A DNA stretch of 64,000 nucleotides, taken from Terriglobia bacterium (GTDB lineage: Bacteria; Acidobacteriota; Terriglobia; JAJPHL01; JAPKYU01). Shown in pieces: positions 19,713-59,216 of the stretch (positions within the stretch are counted from its first letter, which is position 1; each line of letters starts with the position of its first letter). The notes beneath the pieces were generated by a model. The model was not told the origin of the DNA, searched no databases, and saw only the letters and a program-made list of their open reading frames with translations. A program made the translations under genes and the position numbers. The stretch lies in the NCBI GenBank assembly GCA_965206645.1, contig CBDBKE010000003.1:32001-96000 (forward strand), in the 5' to 3' direction.

Positions 19713-20962
19713 TGACCAGACCGATTTTTTGTACCAACCGTAGTGAGAGTTTACATCGCAGCCTGGGGCTGTGAAACTGGTTTCAGTGGCAGGGGAGGGC
19801 TATAGGCCCCCGGCGCCGGGGGCCTATAGCCGAGCGCCGAGTGCGGCCGCACCGTGTTGTATTGCACCCTCCACTGTTCAATCACCACCTGTGCCTCCTT
19901 CAACGAGTAGAAGATCTCTCCATTCAGGCATTCGTCCCGCAGCTTCCCATTGAAACTCTCGCAGTACCCGTTCTCCCAGGGACTGCCCGGTTCGATGTAC
20001 AGTGTCCCGGTCCCTAGATTTGCCAACCACTGGCGCAGTTGTTTGGCGATGAACTCGGGACCATTGTCGGATCGAATCTGTTCCGGTATCCCTCGCCACA
20101 ACATCACGTCCGACAACGCCTCAATGATTTGTTGGCTGCCCATCCTCCGCTCCACCCGGATCGCCAGGCATTCCCGCGTGTACTCATCCAGCAAGGTCAG
20201 CAGCCGCAGCGTTCTCCCCTCGTGCGTTCTGGCACTCATGAAGTCGTAGCTCCACACGTGGTTCGGTCGCTCCGGCCTCAGTCGTACACAGGAACCGTCG
20301 TTCAGCCACAGCCGTCCTCGCGGCCTTTGTTTTTGCGGCACTTTCAGCCCTTCCCGCCGCCAAATCCGCTGCACCCGGTCCTTGCCCACTTCCCAGCCCG
20401 CACTCCGCAGCAACGCTGTGATCCTCCGGTAGCCATATCGCCCGTACTTCGCTCCCAGGGCAATGATCGCTCGGGTCAGAGCATCCTCGTCCACCCAATG
20501 AATCGGCTCGTATCGTTGTGTCCCTCGCCATTGCCCCAGCAGCCGGCAGGCATGCCGTTCCGACAACCCGTGTTGCTCCCACGCACGCTCCACCGCACAA
20601 CGCCGCCGCTCAGGGCTCAGAAGTTTCCCTGTGCCACATCCCGCAGTACCTGCTTCTCCAGAGAAAGCTCCGCTACCAACCGCTTCAGCCGCGTGTTTTC
20701 CTTCTCCAACTCCTTTAGCCGTTTTGCCTGCACCACCTTCAGCCCGCCGTATTCCTTCCGCCACCGGTAGTAGGTTTGGGTGTGGATTCCAGCTTCTTTG
20801 CAGGCTTGGGGCGCAGTCTTCCCGTTCCCCATCTGTACTTCTATCTGCCGTAGCACCGCTACAATCTGCTCCGGCTTGTAACTCCTTGTCGGCATGACCT
20901 CACTTCCTCCTCAAGTGGATTCTCTCTCTTTCCACTTGGTACAAAAAGTGCCGGTCAGGTCA
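19713..20962 (-). mobile_element. IS3 type A, complete inverted copy (orfA 20617-20895; orfB to 19751)
   Basis: 1250 bp, both IRs present, near-identical to 14814-16063. Confidence 0.95.
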
Positions 20963-26597: not shown

Positions 26598-27581
26598 TCA
26601 CACCGAGATGCGCTCGACGATGTTGCGGGTGACCCGCTTCTGCCGCCGGTCGTAGATCTGGGTGGTCTTGGGGTTGGCATGGCCGGCCAGGTACTGGACG
26701 TCCTCGAGAGGCACGTCCTGGGTGAGCAGGTCGGTCACCACCAGGACGCGGAAGCTGTGGGGGCTGAAGATGTCGGGCAACCGGGCATCTTTGAGCCGTC
26801 GCTTGAGCATGCGCCGCATGGAGTTGGCCGACAAGGGGTTCCTGGAGAGCTTCTTCTGTTTTCCCAGGGCCGCCCGGAACAGGGGCGTCTCCTTGGGGTC
26901 CGCAGCGATCCGGGCCGCCTGCAGGTACGCCTCGAGCCAGCGATCGAGGTCGTGGCGGACGGGGATCTCGCGCTGCTGGCCGCCCTTTTCCCGGAACCGC
27001 AGGACGCGCTGGGCGCCCTGGTCCTCGAGGTCCCCGCAGCGCAGCCGGGCGAGGGCGCCGACACGGGCCCCGGTGTAGGCGAGGGTTCCCAGGAGGGCGC
27101 GGTCGCGGAGGCCGACGACGTGGGAGAGGTCGATGGAGGCGAGCAGGTCCCGGGCCTGCTGGATGGCGAGCTGGGGGGTCTTGCCGTCCACGACGGCGTG
27201 CTTCCGCCCCCGCACGGAGGAGAACGGGTTCAGAGCCACGGCATGGCGGATGACCAGGGCGTCGAAGAAATGCCGCAGCGCCGCCAGCGCCAGATTCTTG
27301 GTGGGGTCCGATCCGGGAATATCCTCAATGAAGCGCCCGGCCAGCCCCGGCGTAACCTGACGGAGCTCGATTCCTTGTTCTTCGCACCAGGCGAGGAAGC
27401 GGCCAACGATACGGGCGTAGGCGCGGCGGGTGTGGGGGTTGGAGATGCGGGCGGCGAAGAACTCATCGGCGGCGAACAGGGCGTTCTTCCCGGCGCGCCG
27501 CAGGACGGCGGGAGCGGAGGGGGCACGATCCAGGGCCTGGGCAGCGGGCAGGAGGGCGGCTTGGGAAGGGGCTTGAACCAT
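26598..27581 (-). CDS. Tyrosine recombinase / integrase
   Basis: RDRALL..TGARV, EKGG, HSFR, LAGHANPKTTQIY (R-K-H-R-H-Y set). Confidence 0.9.
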   Translation of the reverse strand: MVQAPSQAALLPAAQALDRAPSAPAVLRRAGKNALFAADEFFAARISNPHTRRAYARIVGRFLAWCEEQGIELRQVTPGLAGRFIEDIPGSDPTKNLALAALRHFFDALVIRHAVALNPFSSVRGRKHAVVDGKTPQLAIQQARDLLASIDLSHVVGLRDRALLGTLAYTGARVGALARLRCGDLEDQGAQRVLRFREKGGQQREIPVRHDLDRWLEAYLQAARIAADPKETPLFRAALGKQKKLSRNPLSANSMRRMLKRRLKDARLPDIFSPHSFRVLVVTDLLTQDVPLEDVQYLAGHANPKTTQIYDRRQKRVTRNIVERISV

Positions 27582-27605
27582 GGTGATATAGGGGATGATA
27601 ACAAC

Positions 27606-28835
27606 GGTGGTCTCAACCCATCGACGCAACACTTTGCCTTGAAAGGAGGAGGTGGAGTGTATGCGGATGAAGCAAAGAGCTCGTCGCGGTTACACGCTGG
27701 CGGAACTGGAGGAGGTGTGGGATCGGTGGAAACGAGGGGAGTCGCTCAAGTCGATTGGACGAGTGTTTTGTAAGCAGCCATCGTCTGTTTACCATCAGCT
27801 TGCTCCGTACGGAGGCATCCGTCCTCGGCCACCACGCCGTTCATGTTGGGCACTGACGTTGTCGGAGCGCGAAGAGATCTCTCGAGGCATTGCGGCACAT
27901 CAATCGATACGATCCATCGCCGGGTTGCTGGGTCGCTCACCATCGACGGTGAGCCGGGAGATTCGGCGGAATGGCGGCGATAATGACTATCGAGCAGCGG
28001 AGGCCGATGAGCAAGCCGGGGAGAGGGCCCGCCGGCCGAAGCGGTGTCAGCTGGTCAAGCATCCACAACTACGACGGGTAGTGGCCAGAAAGCTCAGCAT
28101 AAACTGGTCGCCTGAGCAGATCGCCAGCTGGCTGAAACGAGCCTATCCGAAGGATCCGTCCTATCACGTGTCTCACGAGACCATCTACCGCAGCCTGTTT
28201 GTTCAAGCCCGCGGTGCGCTGAAGGCAGAGCTGATGCAGCATCTGCGGTCAAAGCGGACGATTCGTCGATCCCGACATGCAAGTCTGAGAGGCCATGGAC
28301 GAGGACAGATCACCGACATCGTATCGATCCGTGAGCGCCCGGCCTCGGTCGAAGATCGTGCCGTGCCCGGTCATTGGGAAGGCGATCTGCTGTCCGGATC
28401 GAAGAACAGCCACATTGCGACTCTGGTCGAACGTCATACGCGCTACGTGATGCTTACGAAAGTATCCAGCAAGAAAACGGAGACGGTCGTGTCGGCGCTC
28501 ATCAAGCACGCGAAGAAGCTGCCGACGGAACTGTACAAATCTCTGACTTGGGATCGAGGCCTGGAGCTCGCCGAGCATCGACGGTTCACGTTGGCGACCG
28601 ACATTGACGTATACTTCTGTGATCCTCAGAGTCCATGGCAGCGCGGTTCGAATGAGAACACCAACGGTCTACTCCGACAGTACTTCCCCAAGGGAACGGA
28701 CTTGTCGGTGCACTCTCAGGCGCATCTGAACAAGGTGGCACGTCAGCTGAACGAACGGCCCCGTCAGACGCTGGAGTTTGAAACTCCGGCAGAACGATTT
28801 AACGCTTGTGTTGCATCGACCGGTTGAGCTGGCAA
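27606..28835 (+). mobile_element. IS30-family element (transposase ~27667-28827)
   Basis: IR cores CTCAACCCATCGACGCAACAC / GTGTTGCATCGACCGGTTGAG; GHWEGDL, LTWDRG, ENTNGLLRQYFPKG. Exact tips approximate. Confidence 0.9.
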
Positions 28836-29782: not shown

Positions 29783-30333
29783 GGTTGTGCCCTTCTAAGA
29801 ACGCTTCGGTCGTCTCAGCCGGAAACGCCATCACGAAGCAGTCGTCCGATTGCGGCAGGTCCATCACGAAATAGTGCGCCTTGCGCTCCACCCCGCCGAT
29901 CACCACTTGCGCTTCCCCAAAGTCGGCCTGGGCGTCGCCCGGTGGATGCTCCAGCGGCACGAACATCTCCCGCTGGCTCAGCTTCCGCAGCCGCACGTAG
30001 TCCTTCACGATGGTGTATCCGCCCGGGAATCCGTGCTCCTCCCGCAGCCGCTCAAAAACCTGCTTGGCCGTGTGGCGTTGCTTCTTGCTCTGGGCCTGAT
30101 CTTGCTCCAGGATCTGGTCGATGATCCCCACCCAGGCATCCAGCTTCGGCCGCCGCGCCGGCTGCTGCCGCCGATAGCCCGGAGGGATCGAGTACCACAG
30201 CATCTTGCGGACCGTCTCGCGGGCCAGCCCGAACTGCCGCGCCGCCTCCCGTTCACTCCTCCCCTCAGCCTGAACTGCTCGTCGAACACGCGCATAGAGT
30301 TCTACTGTGTGCACACCTCCGGTGTTCCACAAA
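29783..30333 (-). pseudogene. istA: IS21 istA 5' fragment
   Basis: Near-identical to ~47065-47612. Confidence 0.9.
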
Positions 30334-30989
30334 ACACGGTCCAAGGGATCGCTGTCGTAGGCCTTATCCCCGATCAGTTTCGCCGGAAGTTCATTGAGGA
30401 AGCTGTTCCCGAGGGCCTCTTCGACGAGTTGGCTTTCATGCGGCGAAGCAGCCTGGACACTGACGGCGAGAGGAAGACTGTGGCCAGTGGCGATAGCCGT
30501 GATCTTCGTCCCTTTGCCTCGCTTGGTCGGGCCAACCCCAAGCCCCCTTTTTTTGCCGCCGCAAAGGGTCGCGTCGATGAAGGCTTCTTCCAAATTCAAC
30601 CGACCCTCGGCCTGCAACCGTTTCGCCAGCTTCCGCAAGACCTTCTCCAACGCTCCCGAACGCACCCACTGCTGGAACCGGCGATGGCAGGTCTGGTAAG
30701 GGAGGATACTTGCTCGGCAACTCCCGCCACTGCGCCCCCGTACCCAAGATCCATAACACCCCATTCAGCACCGCTCGGGTATCCGCCGGCGGTCTCCCCT
30801 TCCCATCAGGCCGTTGCTGCGGCCGCAGAATCGGCTCCAAAAGACTCCACTGCTGATCGCTCACCTCCCAGCGTCCACGCATCTCTATGGTTTTGCTTCA
30901 AATCGCCAGAACTCCTTCAGTTTCTATCCTTTCCCGCTGCTCCTGTTACTCCTTTCTTGGCCCTCGAACCATTCTTGAGACAGGTTGCA
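30334..30989 (-). mobile_element. IS5-family (split-ORF type) fragment
   Basis: SDQQWSLLEP...GRPP..TRAVLNGVLWIL.TGAQW; IDAT; GDKAYDSD; frameshifted and truncated. Confidence 0.8.
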
Positions 30990-31004
30990 GTAAAATGGTG
31001 GCGG

Positions 31005-33305
31005 ATGATCAACAGCGTCCAGCTACTCAGAAACATCGGCCTGTTCGATTCCGTCAGCGCCGGTGCCAATATCTCCCTCGCGCGCCTTACGCTGGTGTAT
31101 GCCGAGAATGGCAGAGGTAAGACGACCCTCGCTGCGATTCTGCGTTCGCTAGCAACTGGCGACCCGATCCCGATCGCGGAGCGGCGTCGACTTGCTGCCC
31201 AGCATCCCCCGCATGTTGTTCTGGACTGCGACGGCGGCACTGCGCCCGCGATGTTTCAGAATAACGCCTGGAACCGCATGTTATCGAACCTAGATGTGTT
31301 TGACGACGTGTTCGTTGACCAGAACGTCTACTCAGGTCTGGCCGTTGAGGCGGGACACCGGCAAAACCTGCACGAGCTGATCCTTGGCGCTCAGGCAGTG
31401 GCGCTGAACCAGCAACTGCAGCAGCTTGTTCGGCGGATAGAAGAACACAATGCTGCCCTTAGGGAAAGAGCGGCGGCGATACCAACAGCAGAAAGAGACA
31501 GGCTTTCGGTAGATGATTTCTGTGCGCTTCCGGCGCGTTCAGACATCGACACGGCGATCGAAGCCACAGAACGCAACCTGGCCGCGGCACGCGAGCGAGA
31601 TCCAGTTCGGACCACCGCGCTCTTCGACGCCCTGAGCTTGCCAGCCTTTGACATCGTGGCCATCGATCGAATCCTCGGGGAAGACCTACCGTCCCTTGAT
31701 GTGGCTGCCGCGGCGCAGGTACAAGTTCATCTAGACGGACTGGGTCCAGGTGGCGAGACATGGGTAGGCGAGGGCATGCTGCGCGTACGGCAGCCGGCCG
31801 CAGGGACGAGGAGGGTGAACTGCCCATTCTGTGCCCAGGATCTCACCGGATCACCCGTCATCAACCACTACCGCGCGTACTTCAGTGCGGCATACGCCGA
31901 CCTGAAGCGCAGGGTTTCGGAGGCTCTTGCGGATATTAATCACACGCATGGGAACGATCTTCCGGCGGCGTTTGAGCGAGCGGTTAGGGTCGCTGTAGAG
32001 CGACGGCAATTTTGGTCGCGGTTTTGCGATGTGCCAGAGATCACTGTTGACACGGCAGCGATCGTGCGCGATTGGCGATTTGCACGTGAAGCCGTCGCGG
32101 CGGCGCTGACTGGGAAGAAAGCCGCACCGCTGGAGCGCATGACGCTCGCGCAGGGGGCGCGGGATGCCGTCGCGGCATATGAAGCGCACCGGCATGGGAT
32201 CGCGGAGCTTAGCGCTGCTCTTCAGCACGCAAACGCGGCGATCCGGGTGACCAAGGAACAGGCGGCAGCGGGCAACCCGGCGGCGATCGCCGCCGATCTC
32301 TCGCGGCTCAAGGCCGTGAAGGCGCGGCACTCTGTTAGGATCGCGGCACTTTGCCATAGCTATCTGGCTGAGAAGGCCGCCAAGACGGAAACGGAGCAGC
32401 AGCGGGACCAAACCCGAGCCACGCTCGACCAGCACAGAACGACCGTGTTCGCTGGCTACGAGACCGCAGTGAATCTGTACCTGCGGCGATTCAACGCGGG
32501 CTTCCGGCTGGGCAGCGTGACTTACGCGCAGACAAGGGGGGGGGCGAGTTGCACCTATAATGTGGTCATCAACAACACGGCTGTGGCCGTGGGGGCGGTA
32601 GCACCGCCGGGGGAGCCTTCGTTCCGCAACACCCTGAGCTCGGGAGATCGCAAGGCGCTCGCCCTTGCATTCTTCTTCGCGTCTCTTGACCAGGACCCTG
32701 CGCTGGGCAACAAGGTTGTAGCGATCGATGACCCGATATCGAGCCTCGACGACCATCGCTCCTTGACCACGGTACAAGAGATACGACGCCTTGCGGAGCG
32801 GGCTGACCAAGTGGTTGTGCTCTCTCACAACAAGCTGTTCCTATGCCGCATCTGGGAGGGGACCGATCATACGATCCGCGCCGCACTCCAGGTGGTGCGC
32901 GACGGAGCGGGATCGACCATGCACTCGTGGAATGTCGACCAGGACTGCGTCACCGAACATGATCGGCGCCACGCGATGTTGCGCGAGTACCTTGCCGGCG
33001 GCACACCCAACAATCGCGAAATCGCGAAGGCCATCCGTCCTTTGCTGGAAGCGTTTCTCCGCGTGGCATGCCCGGAGTATTTCCCTCCAGGAAGGCTACT
33101 TGGCCCGTTCTGTAATCTGTGCTCCCACCGAGTCGGCACGCCGCAGCAGATTCTGGATGCACAGGCCACTCAGGAGCTACGTGACCTAATCGAGTACGCG
33201 AATAGATTTCATCACGACACGAACGCGGCTTGGGAGACGGAGCAAATTAACGACACCGAACTTCAGGGCTTCGTACGGCGAGCGCTTAACTTTGCGAAAC
33301 CGTAA
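31005..33305 (+). CDS. RloC-like AAA_13 ATPase with zinc hook and C-terminal HEPN-like domain
   Basis: YAENGRGKTT Walker A, CPFC hook, LSSGDR signature, IDDPISSLD, LSHN, C-terminal ANRFHHD. The 1151-aa ORF-track call is read-through from antisense IS sequence. Confidence 0.8.
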   Translation: MINSVQLLRNIGLFDSVSAGANISLARLTLVYAENGRGKTTLAAILRSLATGDPIPIAERRRLAAQHPPHVVLDCDGGTAPAMFQNNAWNRMLSNLDVFDDVFVDQNVYSGLAVEAGHRQNLHELILGAQAVALNQQLQQLVRRIEEHNAALRERAAAIPTAERDRLSVDDFCALPARSDIDTAIEATERNLAAARERDPVRTTALFDALSLPAFDIVAIDRILGEDLPSLDVAAAAQVQVHLDGLGPGGETWVGEGMLRVRQPAAGTRRVNCPFCAQDLTGSPVINHYRAYFSAAYADLKRRVSEALADINHTHGNDLPAAFERAVRVAVERRQFWSRFCDVPEITVDTAAIVRDWRFAREAVAAALTGKKAAPLERMTLAQGARDAVAAYEAHRHGIAELSAALQHANAAIRVTKEQAAAGNPAAIAADLSRLKAVKARHSVRIAALCHSYLAEKAAKTETEQQRDQTRATLDQHRTTVFAGYETAVNLYLRRFNAGFRLGSVTYAQTRGGASCTYNVVINNTAVAVGAVAPPGEPSFRNTLSSGDRKALALAFFFASLDQDPALGNKVVAIDDPISSLDDHRSLTTVQEIRRLAERADQVVVLSHNKLFLCRIWEGTDHTIRAALQVVRDGAGSTMHSWNVDQDCVTEHDRRHAMLREYLAGGTPNNREIAKAIRPLLEAFLRVACPEYFPPGRLLGPFCNLCSHRVGTPQQILDAQATQELRDLIEYANRFHHDTNAAWETEQINDTELQGFVRRALNFAKP

Positions 33306-33468
33306 GGTTATGAGAGCAGGTCGCGTCACAGAATTCATGCTCGGAAGAAGGTGCGCGATTCGCCTGTGATGTTCGCGGATCGGCCCAATCTTGTCGGCAA
33401 GAGTTCAGGAACGCGGTCTCCAGTGGAAGGTCTGCCCACTTGGCCGTAAAACGCCCATCCCGTCCTTT

Positions 33469-34748
33469 TGACCTGCCGGCTTTCTTCGGACCACCGATTA
33501 CTGGAGAACAGCGCCAGTCGGCATGGTTAAGTCGCTCTCGTGTTCTTCTTGGTCAGCGTGAGCCGGCATCGCCGGCGAGCGCCTACCGTCATCCGAGCCA
33601 GCAGGGAGCTGCGCTTTGAACTCGGCTGGCGTCAGATAGCCAAGGCTCGAGTGCGGTCGCACGTCGTTGTAGTGCCGTCGCCATTGCTCGATCCCCACCT
33701 TCGCGTCCACGCGGTTCCGAAACCACTGCAGGCTCAGATACTCGTCGCGGAACTTCCCGTTGAACGATTCGTCGGTCGCATTCTGCCACGGCTTCCCCGG
33801 CTCGATGAGCGCGGTTTCGATCTGCGCCTGGAGCAGCCACCGGAGAATCGCACCCGCGACAAACTCGGGGCCGTTGTCGGACCGGAGGTAACGTGGGGCT
33901 CCGTGGAGGCTCACGAGCTGCGTGAGCACCTCGATAACGCGCCCGGACCGAATGCCGCCGGCCACGTCGATCGCGAGTGACTCGCGGGTCCATTCGTCGA
34001 CGACGGTGAGGCACTTGAGCGTCTGCCCATTCGCGCAGGTGTCGAACACGAAGTCGTACGCCCAGACGTGATTGACCGCAGTGGCGGGCACCGGGCGGGG
34101 CCGGCTCAGGGCGACCCGGCGCCGCGGCCGCCGCCGAGGCACCTGCAACCCCGCCTGGCGCCAGAGGCGATGGGTCCGGTCCGTGCTCATCGTGTGCCCT
34201 TCGCGTTTTAGGAAAATCCGAATCCGGCGATAGCCGTACCGCGGATACTGCGCCGCCAGACGACGCATCGCGGCCAGCGCCGGGGCATCCCGGTCGACCA
34301 GCCGCGACTGGTAGCCCAGCGTGGACCGTGCGACGGAGAGCAAGGCGCACGCGCGGCGACCCGACAGACCGCGTGCACGTGCATACGCGACCTGCGGCCG
34401 GCGCACGCGTGCGCCTACCATTTTTTTCGGGTGATCTCCTTGAGCACGTCGATCTCCAGATCCCGATCGGCCACCATCTTTTTCAGCCGGCCGTTCTCCT
34501 GCTCGAGCTGCCGCAGCCGCTTCACATCGGCGGGCTCCAACGTGCCGAAGTGTTTCCGCCAGGCGTAGAGCGTCTGGGCGCTGACGCCGTTCTTTTTGGC
34601 CACCTCCGGAACGGGCCGCTGATCGGCCTCGCGGAGGATCGTCACCATCTGCTCTTCGGTAAACCGGGTCTTCTTCATGGCTCCCTCGTTTCTCCGAGGG
34701 CGCCATTCTCTCAGGCTTCAGCTGGTCCGGAAATCGCCAGGCAGGTCA
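33469..34748 (-). mobile_element. IS3 type B, second complete copy
   Basis: 1280 bp, near-identical to 12545-13824; no TSD. Confidence 0.95.
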
Positions 34749-35062
34749 ACCCCATATTGGCCGCTTCGGCTGCACCTGTTGTCACCCGCGTTGCGGCTGC
34801 TTTACCGCCATCCTGTCACTCTCGCCCGGCCTAACCATCGGCTTTCGGTTGTTTGCCCTTCTCCGCTTCCCGTCACCCTCTACGGCCCGCTACGCTGCAT
34901 CCCTTCCGCCAGATGCGGCGCCTGTCAGTCGGGTTGCTTGCCGCTTCGCTGGACCGCGCTGGGAGACGGGGGCGCTGATCCTCCCGGCCAGGGTTCATCC
35001 ATTCCCGCCTGTATGGGTGAGCGGAAATGCTCTAAACCCTAACCTCGAAGGAGAAAAAACAC

Positions 35063-35314
35063 ATGGCAAACCACAGGCCAATTAATGAAATCCGGATCGG
35101 GCGAATCAAGGCAACAATATGGCTCAACGGCACCGAAGATCAGCCGCGCCACAACGTCTCTTTCGGTCGAGTCTACAAAGACGGCGAGACCTGGAAGACC
35201 ACGCACAGCTTCGGGCGCAATGACCTGTTGGTGCTTGCGAAAGTTGCCGACGTGGCTCACACGCTCATCTTGGAGATGGAGAACAAAGACACCGAAACCG
35301 GTGCCGGGTTCTAG
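35063..35314 (+). CDS. Small mobile-element-associated protein, paralog of 12133-12381
   Basis: RBS AAGGAG; shared motifs with the paralog; followed by a hairpin. Confidence 0.75.
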   Translation: MANHRPINEIRIGRIKATIWLNGTEDQPRHNVSFGRVYKDGETWKTTHSFGRNDLLVLAKVADVAHTLILEMENKDTETGAGF

Positions 35315-35324
35315 TAACCTTCCG

Positions 35325-35352
35325 GGGACGGCGGGGATTCCCGCCGTCCCTT
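35325..35352 (+). terminator. GC-rich hairpin
   Basis: GGGACGGCGGG-GATT-CCCGCCGTCCC then TT. Confidence 0.55.
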
Positions 35353-35884
35353 ACGGGAGGAAAAATATATGAACCAGAAACCTATCCTCAAAACAAACCA
35401 TCTAGGCCGCGATCATGGGCTACTTGCGGGAGCTAGTTGTGCTTCCCGGCTGGCCGCAGTATTGCGACCCCCGGAGAGTTCTGTATCGTCTGGCAGACAA
35501 TGCCCCGGCATCCGGTGGGATGGCGCGCCGGGAGAAGAGCTAGTTTATCGCCTGTATTCCCGTTGCCGGTCCGGAGCCGGTAGAGGTGGACTACCACGAG
35601 GCGTTAACTCAGGTTTGCCAAGGGTTTGGATAACTTCTCTCATATCAACAGCCTACGTTGTCGAGAATCCGCGTAAGGCACTACAAACGCGCGGCAACCG
35701 TTTTTTCTCGGGCTCAAACGATCATCTTCCTCGTCCCGCCGGCCGCTCCCCTCCCACAATGCCCATAAATCAATCACTTACGATGACAAAATCCGGCACT
35801 TGGGGCCAAATTACCCACGATCTTGGTAAAGATGGGTTAAACTGATCGTCAATAAAGCCAGACAGCGAGGACTGGGCTTTCACC

Positions 35885-36337
35885 ATGTTGAACTCTCAGG
35901 AGTCAACGCAAGGAATGAGGATGGCGTTCTATCGATTGTTTTTGTACGTCCCGGAAGAATCATGCTTCGCGTTTCGGATTCGCCTCTGTCCTGATCGGGA
36001 GCAGCTTGGCACTGTTGCGGCACCAACCGCCGTCATTTCGCTATCGAGTGACGAGGCGCTGAGCCTCTGTCTCGCCGAACTCGGCGTCACAGGCTATTCC
36101 CGATTTCGTGACGATACGCTCGCCGGGCCGCGTTTCGACTACATCCAGAACACACCGGAGGATATTGTTGCCGCTATCAGAGCAAAGCCGTTCTCAAGCG
36201 TCAGTCATGTAACCTTAATCGCGAAAGACACACCGCCCAGTGAGATGCGCCGTCGCCTCGACTCCCTACGCGAGAAGATACCCGACACCGTTGAAATCGT
36301 TGAGCCCGCTGAGACAAGTTCGGTTAGGCTCTTATGA
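35885..36337 (+). CDS. Hypothetical protein
   Basis: 150-aa ORF with no recognised motif; convergent with the repeat array. Confidence 0.5.
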   Translation: MLNSQESTQGMRMAFYRLFLYVPEESCFAFRIRLCPDREQLGTVAAPTAVISLSSDEALSLCLAELGVTGYSRFRDDTLAGPRFDYIQNTPEDIVAAIRAKPFSSVSHVTLIAKDTPPSEMRRRLDSLREKIPDTVEIVEPAETSSVRLL

Positions 36338-36494
36338 AAGGGGATTATAAAGAACGCTTGACGAGGATGGAATCAGCTATGACTTCGCCCAAAAAGCGCG
36401 TAGAGCTTGCAAGGAGCTGACGGCGTGAGTGCAACGAAGTTCTTGTTGGGAAAGAGTCTCGGAAGGATACTACTAAATCGGAGAGAAACCCTAA

Positions 36495-36536
36495 TTATCG
36501 GGTTTCAATTGGAAAGTCGGGGCGTCCTGTTTCCAT
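36495..36536 (-). CDS. Micro-peptide METGRPDFPIETR
   Basis: AAGGAGGTGA SD, 7 nt from GGAGG to ATG; homologous to the two neighbouring micro-ORFs. Confidence 0.65.
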   Translation of the reverse strand: METGRPDFPIETR

Positions 36537-36691
36537 TCCATCACCTCCTTTTTTAGTTGTACCCAGGGGGTCGTGTAGCCCTCTGAGCCAGCCTTCCGAG
36601 ACTCATTCCCTACAAGACTGCACCTACCATGATCCGTTGTTCTTGTAGGGGAGAGACCCCGAAAGGATACTAAATGGGGGAGAAACTTTAA

Positions 36692-36736
36692 TTATCGGGT
36701 TTCAATCGTAAAGTTTGCGTATTCCGGTTCGTGCAT
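36692..36736 (-). CDS. Micro-peptide MHEPEYANFTIETR
   Basis: AAGGAGGT SD, 7-nt spacer; same IETR-TAA end. Confidence 0.65.
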   Translation of the reverse strand: MHEPEYANFTIETR

Positions 36737-36899
36737 TTCCGTACCTCCTTTTTAGTTGTACTCAGGTCGTTCTGTCCGGCCTGAGCCAAGCTTTCGGGGT
36801 CTCTCCCTTGCAAGACTGTACGATACTCTGATCTATTATTGTTCTTGTAGGGAAAGAGTTCGGGAAGGGATTCTGAATTGGAGAGAAACTCACATTTAC

Positions 36900-36938
36900 T
36901 TATCGGGTTTCAATTGGACAGTTAGGTCGTGGTTCCAT
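36900..36938 (-). CDS. Micro-peptide MEPRPNCPIETR
   Basis: AAGGAGGTGA SD, 8-nt spacer; synonymous changes versus unit 1 (CGC/CGA, CCC/CCT). Confidence 0.65.
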   Translation of the reverse strand: MEPRPNCPIETR

Positions 36939-37147
36939 TTCCATCACCTCCTTTTGTAGAGTACTCGGGTCTTATTCACCCGAGTCATACTTTCGAGGTC
37001 TCTCCACTACAAGATCGCATTATATCGGCTATCCAATTTATACCTTGCCGTTAGCGAGCTGTCTGCATTAGGCTGAAGCCTGCTGCAACGAGTCCGCTGA
37101 GTGCTTAAACGCCCAGTGGCCTTAATTTAATAAGGACGATTAATGCC

Positions 37148-37678
37148 ATGCAACGTGAGAATCTGAAGGGAGTCTTGCCGGTAGTCTCGCTGTTACTTTT
37201 TTTGGGTGTGTTGGGATATCTAACCAGAGACCCTTCGGCAAGAGTCCGGCAGCAGTCTACCCAAGAGGAACGAGCCTATCAAGAGAAGTTGAAAGCGATT
37301 CAGGAGCAAGTGCAAGCTCGCGTAAAGAAATACGGGGAACAGCATGAAGCTGAAGAAGCGGCGAAACGGAAGGCTGAAATACGTCGTCGTTTGGAACTGA
37401 TGAATGCCGATCTTTCGGGTATATGGAATACGGGTGTTGGGTGGGCGTACATGTACCCGAATGGAAAGGTAACACTGTACAGTCGTGATTGCACCGTGAA
37501 ACGACAAGCCACATGGAAGTATGAGTACGGGGCTCTGACAATACACCAGAGGCATCTGAACAGGAACTTTCAAATCTCTTTTGCAAACGTCATAGGGTTC
37601 GAGGGGGTTGGCTTGACTTTTGATACGGGTGGGGAATGGATTCGCCTTAGCAAGAAAATGGACGAACGGCTCTGTTGA
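37148..37678 (+). CDS. Hypothetical membrane-anchored protein
   Basis: RBS AAGGA; N-terminal TM helix, coiled-coil, small beta domain. Confidence 0.7.
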   Translation: MQRENLKGVLPVVSLLLFLGVLGYLTRDPSARVRQQSTQEERAYQEKLKAIQEQVQARVKKYGEQHEAEEAAKRKAEIRRRLELMNADLSGIWNTGVGWAYMYPNGKVTLYSRDCTVKRQATWKYEYGALTIHQRHLNRNFQISFANVIGFEGVGLTFDTGGEWIRLSKKMDERLC

Positions 37679-37727
37679 GGCTAGATCTTATTTCCGACAT
37701 TAGGAATTATTTAAACAGGGAGGCGTA

Positions 37728-38051
37728 ATGTCACAAGACGAACGAGATGCCATCATTGGAAAGACTGGTCGACTGTACCAGGCGGAAACGAAAAGGCGGG
37801 CTTGCCTGAAGACGAAGATATCCTCTATAGCTGACGCTCTTAAAATCGTTCAGGAGGCGCTTGACGGCTGCTTCGACTCCGATTCCGATTATGAGTATTC
37901 TGATAAGAAGAGGCTCATCCAGCGCCGTTACGGTGGTCGGCAAGTTGAGTTACCGGCAAGCGAGGAGTTACACCAGGTGTTTCTCGACGTTGCCGCTACA
38001 GAACGTAGGATCGAGGAGCTTAGGCAGCACCCGAGAAAACGGTTCCGATAG
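37728..38051 (+). CDS. Hypothetical protein
   Basis: RBS GGGAGG; 107 aa. Confidence 0.6.
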   Translation: MSQDERDAIIGKTGRLYQAETKRRACLKTKISSIADALKIVQEALDGCFDSDSDYEYSDKKRLIQRRYGGRQVELPASEELHQVFLDVAATERRIEELRQHPRKRFR

Positions 38052-38334
38052 CCCCCAGGAATGGAGAGGTGTCTGAAAAAGCTGGTTCTGGAAGCCGAGC
38101 GACGGGCTTTCAGGACCCGGCGAGGACCGCTCGGAGCCCCCAGAGAGAAGAACTGTGCTGGAAGGGCTCAGTTGGAGGCCAATGGTTGTATACTCACGAG
38201 TGCCGGAGGGCCAAAAAACTAATTCCGGCTGAATGAAGTGGATACCCCATTCGCGTGATATAATGGAGCCGGTTTCTATGCCTGCTTCGCTTTTGCGTTT
38301 TGTCAAGACCTGAGCCGAAACCGGACATAGTTCT

Positions 38335-38622
38335 ATGAAGACTGGGCTCATCGGTTTCGCCGTCCGACTGCTCGCCGCGGCTGCGGTCTTTGCATTCTGT
38401 GTCATTACTACGGCCGCAGCAACACCCGGTCTGTTCCACGGTGACGATCTGGACCACTGTTGTGAGTTCTGTCACCTCGGTCACCTCCCCATACTGAAGC
38501 CGGGCGTGGGCGTCACCTATCAGCCGCCGCCGAGATTGGCTGTCCCATTCCGATTCCAAGCCGCTCCGCAGGAGAGCCATTTCTCGCTGAGCGTCCACCA
38601 CTCCCGCGCTCCCCCTGCGTAG
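38335..38622 (+). CDS. DUF2946-like (CruR/CutF-type) leader protein
   Basis: Hydrophobic N-terminus, HCCEFCH (CxxC), C-terminal SRAPPA*; directly upstream of a TonB receptor. Confidence 0.75.
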   Translation: MKTGLIGFAVRLLAAAAVFAFCVITTAAATPGLFHGDDLDHCCEFCHLGHLPILKPGVGVTYQPPPRLAVPFRFQAAPQESHFSLSVHHSRAPPA

Positions 38623-38842
38623 ACTCTCCTCACCCAATCTCAAGGGTCGCTTGAAAGTTAGGGGGCCTTTGTCGTAACCAGATTGCCGCTCCAGAGGCTA
38701 TCCGGGCGCTGGCACACTGCCAGTTCCGGTAACACGGGAAGGGCCGCCGTGTTGACTTAAGCGAAGTCGATCAGCTGCCGCCTTGCGATATGGGTCTAAG
38801 CGTTCTTCAACATGAACAAATTCGCAAAAGAGAAGCTCTACC

Positions 38843-41239
38843 ATGCTATTGAATACTATCGCGCGTTGCTTCTTTCTGTCCGCCCTGCTGATGTTGGTTG
38901 CCTTAAAGGCCTGGGGTCAGCAGAGTGGGCAGATCTCAGGGAAGGTCTCGATGAAGGAGACGGGCGGACCGCTCCACGGGGCGCGCGTCTTGATTGTTGA
39001 GCTGGGACGAAGCACGCTCAGCGATGACGATGGCTCGTACGAATTCAATCGCGTCCCCCCAGGCAATTATCACGTGGTCGCCCATCTGGAAGGTATCTTC
39101 ACCGAAGCAGCCAGTGTTGTAAGCGTTGCAGAGGGGGGCAAAACGACCGTCGATTTCCTTCTGAAGCTGGCGACGCTACGAGATACGATCACTGTCACGG
39201 CTGGCGAGAAAAGTGAGCCCGTTTTCGAAGCGTTTCAGAATGTCGAATCGATAGGAGCGTTGGAACTTGCGAGAACCCCTGATGTCTCCCTCGGCGAGAT
39301 GCTTGACCATAGGGTCGGGACTGGGATCGCGAAGCGCAGTTTCGGACCGGCAGCGGCCAGGCCGATCATCCGCGGATTTGACGGCGACCGTGTGCTCATC
39401 ATGGAAGATGGCATTCGGACCGGGACGTTGTCATCGCAATCGGGAGACCACGGCGAACTCATCAACACCGCCCAACTCGAACGGCTGGAGATCGTCAAGG
39501 GCCCGGCCACACTTCTGTACAGCGGCAACGCCATGGGCGGCACCGTGAATGCTGTGAGTCGACACCATGATATGCACAGCCACGCGCATCAGGGATTGCG
39601 GGGTTTCCTCCTGGGTTCCGGAGGGTCCAACAATAGCCTGGGTGGCGCAAGCGCCGGTTTTGAATACGGTGTCGGGAAATGGATGATCTGGGGACAAAGC
39701 GGCGGCGTACGCAGCAGCGACTACACTGCGCCGGATCAGGGCGAGATCTACAACAGCCGTTCCCGCACAACCAATGGCGGTGGGGGATTTGGCTGGTATG
39801 GCAGCAAGACATTCTTCAGCCTTGAGGCCCGGTACGCCGAGGGTTCCTACGGCGTGCCATTCGTTGCGGATTTCCATGGTCGCCATGATGACGAGCACGA
39901 CGAAGATCATGGGGGGGTGGACGAAGATGAAGAACATGACAAGGATGAGAACGGACATGAGGAAGAGGAGGAACTCGATCGCGTTTCGCTAGACTCCGCT
40001 CGTACGCACTTTCGCTTCAACTGGGGCCTGAGAGATCTCGGCGCGGCCATCAACAGCTTCACATTGAAGCTGGGCTACACCGACTGGATACACGACGAGG
40101 TCGAGTTCTTCGAGGACGGCAATTTCGAAGTCGGCACGACGTTTAGCCAGCAGCAGGTCATCTACAGGGGGGTCTTTGAGCAAGGCCATGTCGGTAAGTG
40201 GAGCGGCCGTTTCGGTTTCTGGGGAATTGATCGCGATTACGAGGCTGTGGGCGAGGAAGCCCTTTCGCCGCCGGTCAGCCAATCCGGCTTTGCGGTCTTT
40301 GCTCTGGAAGAAGTGGACTTTGAAACGGTGAAGTTTCAGTTCGGCGGCAGGCTGGAAACCCAAAAGTACACGCCGGCATTCGCAGAACGTGAAATGGACG
40401 AAGGGGGGGATCATCACGAAGAAGAGGGTCATGACGAAGAAGAGGGGGAACAGTACGAGCCGCCAGATGCGATTCAGCGGACTCTGACAGGAGTCTCAAT
40501 ATCTGCGGGTCTTCACGCCAATACGTGGAAGGACGGTGCGCTCGTGATGAACTACGCACACTCGTATCGCGCGCCGGCTCTGGAAGAGCTCTACAATTTT
40601 GGACCGCACGCAGGCACACTGTCGTTTGAAATCGGTGATCCGCAGCTCGAAGCGGAAACGGGCAACGGCGTGGACCTCTCCCTTCGCCACAAAGGCGGCC
40701 TTATACGAGGAGAGCTCAACCTTTTCTACTACGATTTCGACAATTTTATCTTTCCTTTCGCACCCGGCGGGGAGGAAGATGGGCTGCCAGTGATCGAGTT
40801 CACCCAGCGCGACGCACGATTCATGGGAACCGAAGCCGGTCTGGATGTCTCCATTCACCCCAACCTATGGCTGAATCTGGGTGCGGACTTTGTCGATGCG
40901 CAAGAAACCAACCTGAACACTCCTCTGCCCCGCATACCACCGTTGCGGGGCAAGATCGGTTTCGATGTCGACTACAGCGGCTTCCGCTTCACACCGCAAC
41001 TGATCCTCGCGAGCCAGCAGCATCAGACCTATACCAGAGAAACACGCACTCCCGGCTATGCCGTTGTAAACCTGAAGGCTTCCTATACGATTGTTCGGCA
41101 GCACTTGGTGCATCAATTCTCTGTGAATGTCTTCAACATCGGCGACCGCCTTTACCGCAACCACTCGTCGTTCATCAAAGACCTCGCGCCGGAAATTGGC
41201 CGTGGTGTGCGGTTCACCTACACCATGCGTTTCTTCTAG
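38843..41239 (+). CDS. TonB-dependent receptor, ZnuD-like with His/acidic loops
   Basis: Signal peptide; RPIIRGFDGDRV, DHG plug motif, LEIVKGPATLLY; C-terminal Phe; two His/Asp/Glu-rich loops. Confidence 0.9.
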   Translation: MLLNTIARCFFLSALLMLVALKAWGQQSGQISGKVSMKETGGPLHGARVLIVELGRSTLSDDDGSYEFNRVPPGNYHVVAHLEGIFTEAASVVSVAEGGKTTVDFLLKLATLRDTITVTAGEKSEPVFEAFQNVESIGALELARTPDVSLGEMLDHRVGTGIAKRSFGPAAARPIIRGFDGDRVLIMEDGIRTGTLSSQSGDHGELINTAQLERLEIVKGPATLLYSGNAMGGTVNAVSRHHDMHSHAHQGLRGFLLGSGGSNNSLGGASAGFEYGVGKWMIWGQSGGVRSSDYTAPDQGEIYNSRSRTTNGGGGFGWYGSKTFFSLEARYAEGSYGVPFVADFHGRHDDEHDEDHGGVDEDEEHDKDENGHEEEEELDRVSLDSARTHFRFNWGLRDLGAAINSFTLKLGYTDWIHDEVEFFEDGNFEVGTTFSQQQVIYRGVFEQGHVGKWSGRFGFWGIDRDYEAVGEEALSPPVSQSGFAVFALEEVDFETVKFQFGGRLETQKYTPAFAEREMDEGGDHHEEEGHDEEEGEQYEPPDAIQRTLTGVSISAGLHANTWKDGALVMNYAHSYRAPALEELYNFGPHAGTLSFEIGDPQLEAETGNGVDLSLRHKGGLIRGELNLFYYDFDNFIFPFAPGGEEDGLPVIEFTQRDARFMGTEAGLDVSIHPNLWLNLGADFVDAQETNLNTPLPRIPPLRGKIGFDVDYSGFRFTPQLILASQQHQTYTRETRTPGYAVVNLKASYTIVRQHLVHQFSVNVFNIGDRLYRNHSSFIKDLAPEIGRGVRFTYTMRFF

Positions 41240-41688: not shown

Positions 41689-43055
41689 TGTCCATTGCGA
41701 ATTGATATGTTGAGCGATTCTACCCGTGACCGCTGCCCCAGTGAGGCGAGTGCACACTGGCGGAGTACCCTCGGTAGCAGCGAAACAATCAGATCAGACA
41801 ACCGCTCCGCGTTGACAAGCTCAAACAGCGAATGGTTTCGTAGGAAGTGCCCGCCTGCCGATGTCCGCCGGTTACACAGGGAGCACCAGTCTTTGGAGAA
41901 TCAGGCAGTCATTGGGGTGTGATAGAGGCCTCTGCAGTGGCGTTGCCATCCATAGGAATGGAGCCTGGCGACTGGTCGTGGTATAGGCGTGACTGGATCA
42001 GGCGTTCTCCCTTCCAGTCCAGTGTGCAAGCGATACGCATTGAAATATGTCCTGAAATCGAGCAGCTTGTTCTCCAGGTCCGCCGTCGTCCAGAACAACC
42101 TGCGATCCAAATGCTCGCGTCGAATCGTGCCGATCAACCGTTCCACAAAGGGATGGGACAGGGGAACATAGGGGACGGTTTTGATTTCGATTACCTCCAG
42201 GATCCGCAGATTGGCTTGCCACTGCCCAAACCGATACAGGGGATCATGGTCGGAGCTGAGGTAGTTGGGCATACAGGGTTGCCATCGAATGGCGCGGTTG
42301 AACATGCGGCAAAGTGCCACGCCATTGACGGTTCCGGCGTGGACGCCGAACCCAATGATCCGACGGGTGTATTGATCCATGACGACCAAGACCCAGCGGG
42401 TCCGCAACGTGGCCGATTCGCACCGGAACAGATCTATACTCCAGAGGCTGTCCTTCATGTGGCCAATGAAGGTCAGCCAGGATGGACCACCGGAGTCCTT
42501 TTTCGGCCGATAGTGGCTGGCGAGAATCCTTCGAACAACGTCTTTGTCGATGAGGATGTCGAAAGCCAAGGCAATCTGCTGAGCGATTCGCGGGCAGCCC
42601 CAGGTGGGATTGCGCTGCTTCATCTGGACAACAGCGTCGATGAGTTCTTTGTTGGGTCCGTTTGGTCCGGGCTTACGCCGGTGCTTGGATGAAAAGAGCA
42701 GGCAATATTTTCGGTTCCTCAGAGCCCGGTGGAGACCCAAAAGAGTCGAAGGCTTCAGCACGATTGCTGAGCGGATCAGGCGGGCGGGGCGGATGAAGAG
42801 AGCACATAAACCGGCGACAAGGCGATCTGAGGTGCGTAGATTGGGTGACCGCTGTCGCGAACGATTGAGAATCAGGAGTTGTTGCTTGACATGAACGGAC
42901 TCAGCCACCACAGAACGGAAGCAACCCGGACCTGCAAGTCGCGCAAGAGTAACGATTAAATGAACGAAAAGGATGACAAGATCACGCATCTTGGCATTCT
43001 ATCAAATCTTGATAATGGCAGAATATTGGCCCGTTTTAGCAATTCGCCAGGGACA
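41689..43055 (-). mobile_element. IS481-like integrase-core element, intact copy B (transposase 41901-42989)
   Basis: TGT...ACA imperfect 16-bp IRs; NPTWGCPRI, SIDLF, SDHDP, ERLIGTIRRE. Confidence 0.8.
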
Positions 43056-44676: not shown

Positions 44677-45738
44677 GGCGTTGTTGCAGAAATCTGACTC
44701 CATCCCCAACGCTCTCCCTCCTGATAGGCTAGGGGATGGGCAAAAGCGACTACACCTTCCGATATAAGGTTCGCAACTGGCCGGAGCACAACCGGGCTCT
44801 GGTGAAACGTGGGCAGCTGACACTGTGGTTCGACACGGAGGCAGTCGCTGCCTGGCGTCATCCAGGACCCTTCGAAGGGCGAGGCCGGCCCAAGGTCTAC
44901 GCAGATGCGGCGATCCAATGTGCGCTGGTCCTGAATTCGGTGTTTCACCTCAACCTACGGACCACTCAAGGGTTCCTTCAATCCATCGTGGCGCTCATGG
45001 CTCTCGACCTCCCAGTGCCCAACTACAGCACGGTGAGCCGAAGGCAAAGCGCCGTCGACGTCCGACTGAGTGTAGGGCCCACGGATCGACCACGACATGT
45101 CGTCATCGATTCGACGGGCCTGAAGATCTACGGAGCCGGTGAGTGGCACATCAGAAAACACCGAACCCTCCGCCGTAGGACATGGCGAAAGCTCCACCTA
45201 GGCATCGATGAGACGACGAAAGAGATCGTTGCGATGGACCTGACTGCGAGCAACGTCCACGACGCCCGAAGGCTCTCTTCGTTGCTGTCTAAGACTCCTG
45301 GTTCGATCGGGCAAGTCTCCGCAGACCGGGCCTACGACACGGGTTCCTGCTACGAGGCCGTACTCCAGCACGACGCTATCGTGACGATCTTGCCGCGACG
45401 CAATGCACGATGCAGCCGAGACTCTCATCCGCCTCCGTGGCGTGCGATGCGTGATACCCATCTCCGGCGTATTAGGACGCAGGGCCGTTATGAGTGGCGG
45501 AAGTCGAGTGGCTGCACTCGCCAGAGCGTGGCGGAGAATGCGGTCTCACGGTACAAGGCGATACTCGGGGTAAGCCTCTCGGCCCGCACGGTCAAGAACC
45601 AAAAAGTCGAAGCCGCGATCAAGTGCGCTGTGCTGAACCGGATGGCGGAGCTTGGAATGCCACGATCGGAGCGCGTGTACTGAGGCGGATGAGCTTCTCG
45701 GCCCGGTTCGCCGCGAGCGCGAATTACGCAACAACGCC
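44677..45738 (+). mobile_element. IS5-family (IS903 group) element (transposase 44736-45683)
   Basis: IR GGCGTTGTTGC / GCAACAACGCC; YKVRNWPEHN.AL..RG, IDSTGLK..GAGEW, ADRAYD. Confidence 0.9.
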
Positions 45739-58848: not shown

Positions 58849-58989
58849 GCGACTAACTCTAGACTCCGGCCCAGCCCGCGTCAAGGCCGCCAGCTTTTGT
58901 TTCTTTGGTGTTTCTTGGCGTTTCTTGACGCCGCCCAGATCTAAGCACAGCACCCTTGCGCGGCGCGCAACTTTGGGGTAGCATTCCTC

Positions 58990-59176
58990 CGAACATTGGG
59001 TTCCCGGTGTCCGCCGGATGGTCCGGCGGCATGGGAAGCTGGTGCAAATCCAGCACGGCCCCGCCACTGTGATTGCCGAGGACGTGCCCCGAACGCCACT
59101 GTCCGCAAGGATGGGAAGGCGGGCACGGCCGTTCCCGAGAAAATCGGGAGTCAGGCATAAGTCAGGAGACCGGCCG
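58990..59176 (+). promoter_or_regulatory. Cobalamin riboswitch
   Basis: GGGAAGCTGGTGCAAATCCAGCACGGCCCCGCCACTGTG, GCCACTG...TGGGAAGGC, B12 box AAGTCAGGAGACCGGCC; upstream of a TonB receptor. Confidence 0.95.
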
Positions 59177-59216
59177 GGAATCTCACTCGTTCCCCTGTCG
59201 AGGGATAGGAGGAGAG

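Follow-up and report, generated by a model that had tools for sequence, protein, structure and literature searches.

Type I toxin peptides are membrane-active. Regulatory leader or arrest peptides such as ErmCL, CmlAL and TnaC are further very short bacterial products, and tandem paralogous arrays are known for small RNAs (sRNAs; Sib, LhrC1-5, RsmX and NsiR1). In the part of the T1TAdb description used here (PMC8594479), type I toxins have a length of 20-60 amino acids (aa), with hydrophobicity serving as a search criterion. Their mRNAs are given there as 150-400 nt long, with a long-distance interaction between the 5′- and 3′-ends, a Shine-Dalgarno (SD) sequence paired to an anti-SD sequence, tandem copies and a terminator stem-loop at the 3′-end. 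The antitoxin is an antisense RNA of 60-200 nt with its own promoter (T1TAdb description, PMC8594479, same part). Here, a locus of comparable build is described from a 64,000-nt stretch of contig CBDBKE010000003.1 of a Terriglobia bacterium (assembly GCA_965206645.1; this whole stretch is called the window and all positions refer to it). It is an array of three diverged units, lying head to tail on the minus strand at 36439-37016 with a spacing of 197 to 208 bp. Tentatively, and at somewhat less than an even chance, the units are read as minus-strand, self-locking micro-open reading frame (micro-ORF) RNA cassettes that are clamped at their ends and built like type I toxin mRNAs.

The array was first noticed in an initial annotation made from the letters of the window, and all six features listed there were found in the sequence where they had been placed. 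Repeat finding resulted in four families (D1-D4) with three copies each, in agreement with the three units of about 200-bp period given in that annotation. The mean column identity of the three units in a MAFFT alignment was 77%. Tandem Repeats Finder returned 0 rows for the array, since the copies are too diverged and contain indels. The array is not an assembly artefact, because contigs from two studies match the sequence exactly. A contig of 2,015 nt from run X1 covers positions 36067-38081 and two contigs of the second study (X4) cover 36554-36780 and 36806-36996, all of them with 0 differences.

The units are more structured than expected by chance, as judged from z-scores, shuffle tests and slid-partner tests. 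For the minus strand, the z-scores of the minimum free energy (MFE) are listed in Table 1, and none of 200 shuffles was equally stable for any unit. The consensus fold contains a terminal clamp of 25 pairs (P1), an inner hairpin of 10 pairs (P2), a further variable inner hairpin, a helix of five pairs between the GGAGG of the SD and CUCC/UCUCC (P3), and a hairpin of five pairs, GAAAC/GUUUC, with the stop codon in its loop (P4). All five pairs of P4 are invariant. On this structure 87.3% of the pair cells were found to be paired, compared to 83.3% in column shuffles (reached by 0 of 500) and 37-59% with slid partners. The number of pairs changed on both sides was 10, whereas the shuffles gave 6.0 (4 of 500 reached the observed value).

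The end-joining stems of about 25 bp could be confirmed, with 25 to 26 nt and 92% complementarity in units B and C and a looser stem in unit A. Between B and C, 14 of the 25 P1 pairs are identical. The remaining 11 pairs comprise seven that changed on both sides with pairing kept and four with a mismatch in one of the units; a one-sided change with pairing kept was found in none. Of the ten differences in the 5′ arm, nine are transitions, which is the path expected via G-U intermediates. The 5′ arm of unit A resembles B (21 of 25 positions, compared to 17 of 25 for C) and its 3′ arm resembles C (21 of 26, compared to 16 of 26 for B). Judging from these arms, unit A is a chimera whose 5′ arm is of the B type and whose 3′ arm is of the C type, and its stem is loose because the arms are mosaic. 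The covariation therefore rests essentially on one comparison, B with C. Thus, the arm covariation proposed initially is upheld for this pair by the seven compensated P1 pairs, and unit A drops out as a third instance. The second hairpin upstream of the SD, which had been claimed to keep its pairing with altered sequence, does so in all three units.

From the sequences, some process preserves the pairing within the units, and selection on RNA is the simplest account of it. A very unlikely alternative is that the units are a decaying tandem duplication of no function, brought in by foreign DNA. The array was found in one genome only, its islet has a GC content of 47-55% compared to 61% in the genome, and the first unit is chimeric and loosened, as such decay would have it. 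Under neutrality, however, a divergence of 23% should have broken the stems, and against this stand the 7 of 11 differing P1 pairs that are compensated, the lack of one-sided changes with pairing kept, and the invariance of the 10-nt SD and of a 15-nt block.

Conversion between the arms of a DNA palindrome may be an alternative source of the kept pairing. The array would then be a palindromic repeat without a role as RNA, for example a relic similar to a miniature inverted-repeat transposable element (MITE), a group of segments able to invert, or a substrate for recombination of another kind. The inverted repeats of 25-26 bp enclose about 125 bp, their outermost 10 bp (TCTTGTAGGG/CCCTACAAGA) are common to the units, and unit A resembles a product of unequal exchange. 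The tally of wobble pairs lacks a strand preference, and mobile DNA is dense nearby (rve and DDE transposases, a tyrosine recombinase). Nevertheless, we consider this account unlikely. P2, too, keeps its pairing with changed sequence, the invariant layout of SD and ATG is left unexplained, and the transitions that make up nine of the ten 5′-arm differences are those expected through G-U intermediates. The array is a single locus without any other copy in the genome by BLAST or covariance model (CM), and no recombinase lies within 9 kb. With regard to invertible segments, the contigs of both studies hold the units in a single orientation and without joints within the array, although contigs drop minor or rare forms.

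In each unit the SD AAGGAGGT is placed ahead of an ATG, at a distance of 7, 6 and 6 nt in A, B and C, respectively. Counted from GGAGG the distance is 7-8 nt, which is the value of the initial annotation. The sequence AAAAGGAGGT is invariant in all three units despite their overall likeness of 77%. The 16S rRNA of the same genome ends with GGATCACCTCCTTTCTAAG, and the complement to this tail is perfect over 12 nt in A and C and over 9 nt in B. Complements of the 16S tail with at least 12 nt were found at eight non-rRNA loci of the 4.4-Mb genome, two of these being units A and C.

The three frames (12, 14 and 13 codons in A, B and C) all end with the invariant ATTGAAACCCGATAA, and the final 15 nt are unchanged among the units. 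The stretch between the ATG and the constant block measures 24, 30 and 27 nt in A, B and C, respectively, so that all three frames agree; we estimate a chance of about 1 in 9 that two independent indels are both multiples of three. Synonymous differences in the third position (CGA/CGC and CCT/CCC) distinguish units A and C, together with two replacements within RP(N/D)(C/F)P. ORFs differing by whole codons, with synonymous changes and an invariant end, were thus recovered as first reported. The grand average of hydropathy (GRAVY) of the peptides is −1.34, −1.07 and −1.18, meaning that they are hydrophilic, and their net charge ranges between −0.5 and −2.4.

Each stop codon is followed by GTTTCTC(T/C)CC, and in the predicted consensus fold the CUCC of this element pairs with GGAGG, in line with the anti-SD role suggested at the outset. 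The probability of GGAGG being unpaired is 0.08-0.19 in folds of the full-length units, compared to 0.11-0.51 in 5′ prefixes that end before the anti-SD. These modelled values fit an SD lock that closes only on the completed unit.

Table 1. Positions of the units, their elements and the flanking genes in the window (CM, covariance model R1; MFE, minimum free energy, with z-score).
Feature	Position	Strand	Description
Unit A	36841-37016	-	176 nt; first on the minus strand; looser terminal stem, chimeric arms; CM 153.1 bits; MFE -53.5, z -4.49
Unit B	36639-36818	-	180 nt; CM 192.3 bits; MFE -68.1, z -6.63
Unit C	36439-36620	-	182 nt; CM 185.6 bits; MFE -79.9, z -7.13
Terminal inverted repeat, unit B	36641-36665/36791-36815	-	25 nt, 92% complementary
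Terminal inverted repeat, unit C	36441-36466/36592-36617	-	26 nt, 92% complementary
P2 inner hairpin	A 36963-36985; B 36760-36786; C 36561-36588	-	10 pairs, 3 changed on both sides; 86.7% of cells paired
SD AAGGAGGT	A 36946-36953; B 36743-36750; C 36543-36550	-	7, 6 and 6 nt before the ATG in A, B and C
Micro-ORF A	36900-36938	-	MEPRPNCPIETR + TAA; 12 codons
Micro-ORF B	36692-36736	-	MHEPEYANFTIETR + TAA; 14 codons
Micro-ORF C	36495-36536	-	METGRPDFPIETR + TAA; 13 codons
P4 and anti-SD UCUCC	A 36880-36911; B 36677-36703; C 36480-36506	-	from the consensus fold
TATAAT	37019-37024	-	4 nt before the first stem base of unit A
TATCGT	36820-36825	-	4 nt before the first stem base of unit B
TAGGTG	36621-36626	-	3 nt before the first stem base of unit C
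Flanking gene, 150 aa	35885-36337	+	relatives at 73% and 38% identity; real gene
Flanking gene, 176 aa	37148-37678	+	N-terminal hydrophobic anchor, coiled-coil-like middle, C-terminal domain with two conserved Cys

For clamp-locked cassettes read from the minus strand, the following course can be proposed. Transcription of cassettes of about 180 nt would probably start from the TATAAT that directly precedes unit A, with a possible second start from the TATCGT before unit B. The TATAAT and TATCGT are present 4 nt upstream of their units as described initially, and the third unit was found to have TAGGTG at 3 nt. A start at these −10-like hexamers, which keep a fixed distance of 3-4 nt from the stem, would put the 5′-end into the clamp, as described for type I toxin mRNAs in the part of the source used here (PMC8594479). 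The first and the last 25 nt of the RNA would pair as P1, similar to the fold-back of those mRNAs, followed by P2. A very strong SD would then stand 6-7 nt before the AUG of a frame of 12-14 codons, with the stop codon in the loop of P4 and the UCUCC right behind it pairing back onto the SD. In such an RNA, the SD would be free only during synthesis or once the clamp is opened or cut, and the finished molecule would be locked. With its 25 bp, P1 would be long enough to serve as a substrate of RNase III. On its way to the stop codon of the micro-ORF, a ribosome would open P4 and the anti-SD. The relevant product could be the hydrophilic peptide, with its variable head and constant ...IETR tail, or the engagement of the ribosome itself. 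The sequence itself shows the repeats, the stems with their compensatory changes, the layout of SD, ATG, frame and stop, and no relatives in the collections searched; strand, transcription, translation, processing and any biological role are what we infer for the units.

Several observations weigh against this proposal. No −35 element was seen with the −10-like hexamers. In a consensus scan, no full sigma-70-type site was found within the array on either strand, both promoter-like sites lying outside of it, and no terminator-like site was detected on either strand in 35800-37800. In each of the three units the MFE is lower for the plus strand (A −57.9 compared to −53.5, B −82.2 compared to −68.1, C −82.5 compared to −79.9), which reaches a z-score of −8.66 in unit B. 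For B and C taken together, the positions at which pairing is strand-specific (wobble on one strand and mismatch on the other) are tied, with five for the minus strand only and five for the plus strand only. Both flanking genes are encoded on the plus strand. The codon changes in the N-terminal part of the peptides are mostly non-synonymous, and every frame of the constant block contains a stop (TAA; shifted by one base, TAG or TAA; and the TGA of ATTGAAA), so that any ATG yields a short ORF that ends there. The evidence for the frame comes from three paralogues, of which one is chimeric, and a relative was not found in the searched collections. The initial annotation had asked whether IETR is conserved as amino acids or as nucleotides. 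The end is invariant in all three units, and the two constraints are inseparable because the GAAAC within the IETR block is also the 5′ arm of P4.

Part of these observations could be explained by a non-coding structured RNA in which the micro-ORF is incidental, an account that we regard as quite possible without being probable. It could be a minus-strand RNA with an SD-like element that binds the 30S subunit or 16S rRNA, or a plus-strand RNA produced antisense or by read-through from the 150-aa gene towards the 176-aa gene. Read-through is plausible because both neighbours are real genes on the plus strand, and a plus-strand RNA of either origin is conceivable. In the plus-strand form, AUCACCUCCUUU is a copy of the 16S 3′ tail (12 nt in A and C, 9 nt in B) and, together with the CAU that lies 6-7 nt upstream, might base-pair with the regions at which translation starts. 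Such an anti-SD plus anti-AUG RNA would explain the SD and the ATG on the opposite strand. Alternatively, the long hairpins could act as intercistronic stabilisers similar to repetitive extragenic palindromic (REP) elements. The better folding of the plus strand in all units and the nucleotides of the constant 'IETR', which partly form a hairpin arm, are consistent with this account. It leaves the agreement of the frames (24, 27 and 30 nt) and the synonymous changes between A and C unexplained. Furthermore, a terminator was found on neither strand by consensus scan, no Rfam family matched, and targets or partners could not be found: CsrA was not detected and the GGA count is unremarkable.

On the plus strand, the first arm of every unit contains a weak promoter-like pattern at a corresponding position (TTGTAG or TTGTTG, 17-18 nt, GATACT or GATTCT). 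By our own reading it has 7 or 8 of 12 matches, which is under the threshold of the scan. This pattern would speak for a true type I toxin-antitoxin (TA) array, in which each unit is a toxin mRNA with an overlapping antitoxin RNA on the plus strand. The unit size of 176-182 nt is within the range of 150-400 nt, and 5′-3′ interaction, SD/anti-SD pairing and tandem copies are typical for such loci, as far as given in the part of the source used here (PMC8594479). The same part states a peptide length of 20-60 aa, compared to 12-14 aa in the array (PMC8594479), and the hydrophilic peptides (GRAVY −1.07 to −1.34) are too short to span a membrane. Since the consensus scan gave no terminator hairpin, the plus-strand pattern stays below threshold and no Rfam antitoxin family matched, we judge a TA array to be most improbable.

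Two further observations were made upstream of unit A. A sigma-70-like site at 37254-37282 (minus strand; TTGATA, 17 nt, TAGACT; 9 of 12 matches) is located about 240 nt upstream of the unit, within the first part of the 176-aa gene. Transcripts of the minus strand could enter the array from there; the count of such sites matches chance. The conserved block of unit C (36501-36519) has a 79% complementary counterpart of 19 nt at 37026-37044, just upstream of unit A, and this counterpart is also 81% complementary, over 16 nt, to the block of unit A. This could be due to chance or be the trace of an inverted partial unit.

For the identification of relatives, the array was compared with sequence and family collections. 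A search of 35000-39000 against Rfam at E≤10 gave two chance rows, both outside the array, so that no described Rfam family is matched even at this limit. At the gathering score, the whole window contained a cobalamin riboswitch only (58988-59192, plus strand, 109 bits), located at the start of a 780-aa ORF (59073-61415). In the own genome, BLAST and the covariance model R1 recovered just the three units. Among 100 relatives the model gave one weak match of 22.3 bits (G019), which lacks nearly all interior positions, and among 150 genomes of the phylum one match of 24.3 bits, an AT-rich simple hairpin. The check by covariance model suggested initially thus recovered the three units (153.1-192.3 bits) and found no relatives among the genomes searched. 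With blastn, one 22-nt match inside an apparent coding sequence was obtained from 400 genomes of the phylum, and none from plasmids and phages.

The pattern AAGGAGG..GAAACCCGATAA..GTTTC was found in one stretch of the genome contigs and two of the metagenome contigs, with about two expected by chance (own estimate), and none of these is a unit according to the model. Two looser patterns gave 7 and 0 stretches in a viral collection, again none of them a unit. The pattern scans are strict, and diverged relatives would be missed by them. A protein search with the spurious 67-aa plus-strand ORF over the array, covering related arrays miscalled in this way, resulted in one candidate, and none scored. 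In a full-text literature search, nothing resembling the array was found. As far as these searches reached, the array is undescribed, with no Rfam match at E≤10 and no homologue in the collections tried. The original interpretation as an undescribed system of micro-peptides or structured RNA is therefore supported in its novelty and, by prediction and compensatory changes, in its type-I-like architecture, whereas it is weakened by a plus strand that folds at least as well.

The array occupies most of the 810-bp gap between the 150-aa and the 176-aa gene. Neither neighbour matched Pfam, NCBIfam or PADLOC. The relative with 73% identity to the 150-aa protein is encoded on a contig of 4.8 kb. An AlphaFold2 model of the 150-aa protein reached a predicted local distance difference test (pLDDT) score of 74, Foldseek found no PDB fold for it at E≤0.001, and the Atlas gave no usable match. 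The 176-aa protein has 15 relatives besides itself at E≤0.001 and, from its sequence, looks like an anchored or exported protein. For both genes only weak rows were found in 400 genomes of the phylum and 400 of the class, and none in viral contigs or plasmids.

The GC content of 35000-38500 is 47-56%, compared to 61% for the genome, and apart from small repeats this stretch is without counterpart in three genomes of the same genus. Transposases of the rve type are encoded at 19751-20764 and 41901-42989, a DDE transposase at 44736-45683, and a tyrosine recombinase 9 kb off at 26598-27632, with no recombinase nearer than that. Because of the low-GC islet, the lack of a same-genus counterpart and surroundings rich in insertion sequences (IS), the array is considered to have come on foreign DNA from an unsampled donor.

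Other elements were identified in this region. An IS of 1.28 kb is located at 33468-34748 and contains an rve-type transposase (402-aa ORF, minus strand, 33498-34706); the same-genus genome G003 holds at least 16 copies of it at 99-100% identity. A 1,151-aa AAA_13 ATPase at 29850-33305 (plus strand) has PDC-S06, a candidate defence family, as its match (E 9e-60); the rows for PrrC and LmuB are weaker. An 83-aa ORF at 35063-35314 (plus strand) gave no match in Pfam, NCBIfam or PADLOC. In two metagenome-like runs, its part at 35123-35263 is covered to a very high summed depth and by many variant contigs, and its neighbours in the Atlas are unnamed clusters of 84-90 aa, with Planctomycetota being commonest among the few members of known phylum. 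The ORF resembles a small, widely distributed gene of mobile DNA. An element of about 140 nt at 38094-38235 occurs at several places in two same-genus genomes (95-97% identity), and the X4 contigs skip 104-105 nt there; it may be a small mobile or repeated element. On contig C4 of genome G000, a small CRISPR-like array (three repeats, 61-bp period) and a tandem repeat of 36-bp period with at least 13 copies were found at about 1993815 and 740471, respectively.

Few structured coding units known from bacteria would be as short as those of the array, provided that the latter are indeed transcribed and ribosomes read them. The units might even stand for a new class of mobile, self-contained, clamp-locked RNA cassettes of about 180 nt, with an SD of up to 12 nt, a frame of 12-14 codons and a constant ...IETR-UAA in a hairpin loop, unrelated to the TA, leader-peptide and sRNA families. 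Their function would then be ribosome engagement, as a sensor of termination or arrest or as a trap for 30S subunits on foreign DNA, or the release of hydrophilic micro-peptides with a variable head. In this full form the proposal has a small chance of being right. If true, it would provide a wider search target in the unannotated gaps of mobile islands. At present, the array is a well-documented curiosity in a single genome and not a system.

Several known element types were compared with the array. MITE or REP-like palindromic elements such as Correia and ERIC resemble it in that it has terminal inverted repeats of about 25 bp around an interior of about 125 bp and would fold as RNA if transcribed. 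Unlike these, the array is confined to one locus and has an asymmetric interior with a covarying hairpin of its own. A dispersed MITE or palindromic repeat was rejected, as BLAST and the covariance model recover only the three units in the genome. Integron attC sites have the cores RYYYAAC ... GTTRRRY. The arms TCTTGTAGGG...CCCTACAAGA do not fit these cores and the nearest tyrosine recombinase is 9 kb away, and attC sites or clusters of attC sites lacking integrons (CALIN) were rejected. For a CRISPR-repeat mimic (RNA anti-CRISPR), the likeness of ATTGAAAC is to the repeat ends of other systems; a single small array was detected in the genome, its repeat, beginning with GTTTCCCCCGCACACGCGGG, is a different one, and this identity was rejected. 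The same applies to a retron msr-msd, the sole RVT_1 match of the genome being on another contig, to hammerhead or other ribozymes, for which no Rfam row was obtained, and to a repeat within the coding region of a large, decayed gene, since periods of 197-208 bp are not multiples of three and all frames are broken.

Type III TA systems (ToxI/ToxN) consist of RNA repeats of about 36 nt upstream of a ToxN-type endoRNase. The array likewise combines tandem repeats of structured RNA with an adjacent gene of about 170 aa, and its defence-rich surroundings include the PDC-S06-like ATPase. In contrast to ToxI, its units measure about 200 nt and the 176-aa neighbour is exported-looking with conserved Cys. 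ToxIN was rejected on the basis of the period of about 200 nt and of neighbours without a ToxN or Abi match. A genome-wide search for PF13958 (ToxN) was blank and uninformative, since its control also matched nowhere.

The tandem sRNA arrays share with this locus the head-to-tail paralogues of 100-200 nt, possibly with a −10 element for each. They differ in that no terminators and no CsrA were found for the array and each unit has the full layout of SD, ATG, ORF and stop. A CsrB/Rsm sponge was rejected, as PF02599 (CsrA) was not found in the genome (97.9% complete), whereas the control matched in three genomes. The GGA count of the array is 16, which is reached by 14.7% of the genome windows. 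Leader and arrest peptides are similar with respect to the very short ORF, the strong SD, a switching RNA structure and constant last residues with their stop context. Unlike them, the array has no downstream gene on the same strand to control and exists in three self-contained copies; family scans of the neighbourhood revealed no antibiotic-resistance or catabolic gene near it.

The closest likeness in design, as judged from predicted folds, is to the type I toxin mRNAs (hok/sok, aapA1/isoA1, ibs/sib and ldr/rdl). As in these, the units would form short self-contained RNAs (176-182 nt) with clamped ends and an SD hidden by a downstream anti-SD, in tandem, with a P1 of 25 pairs (seven compensatory) and an SD unpaired probability of 0.08-0.19. 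Unlike the hydrophobic toxins of 20-60 aa, the peptides are hydrophilic and have 12-14 aa. The array also differs by the absence of a detectable 3′ terminator hairpin, of a convincing antisense promoter and of any relation by sequence or covariance model. Membership was rejected on peptide length, hydrophobicity and terminator. The array is thus, on the predicted folds, like a type I toxin mRNA in design and not a member of the type. It is set apart by peptides of insufficient length and hydrophobicity and by the lack of a terminator in the consensus scan, and for an antisense promoter just the sub-threshold plus-strand pattern was seen. If the proposed course holds, the design of type I toxin mRNAs, an end-to-end clamp combined with an SD lock, would here serve something other than a membrane toxin.

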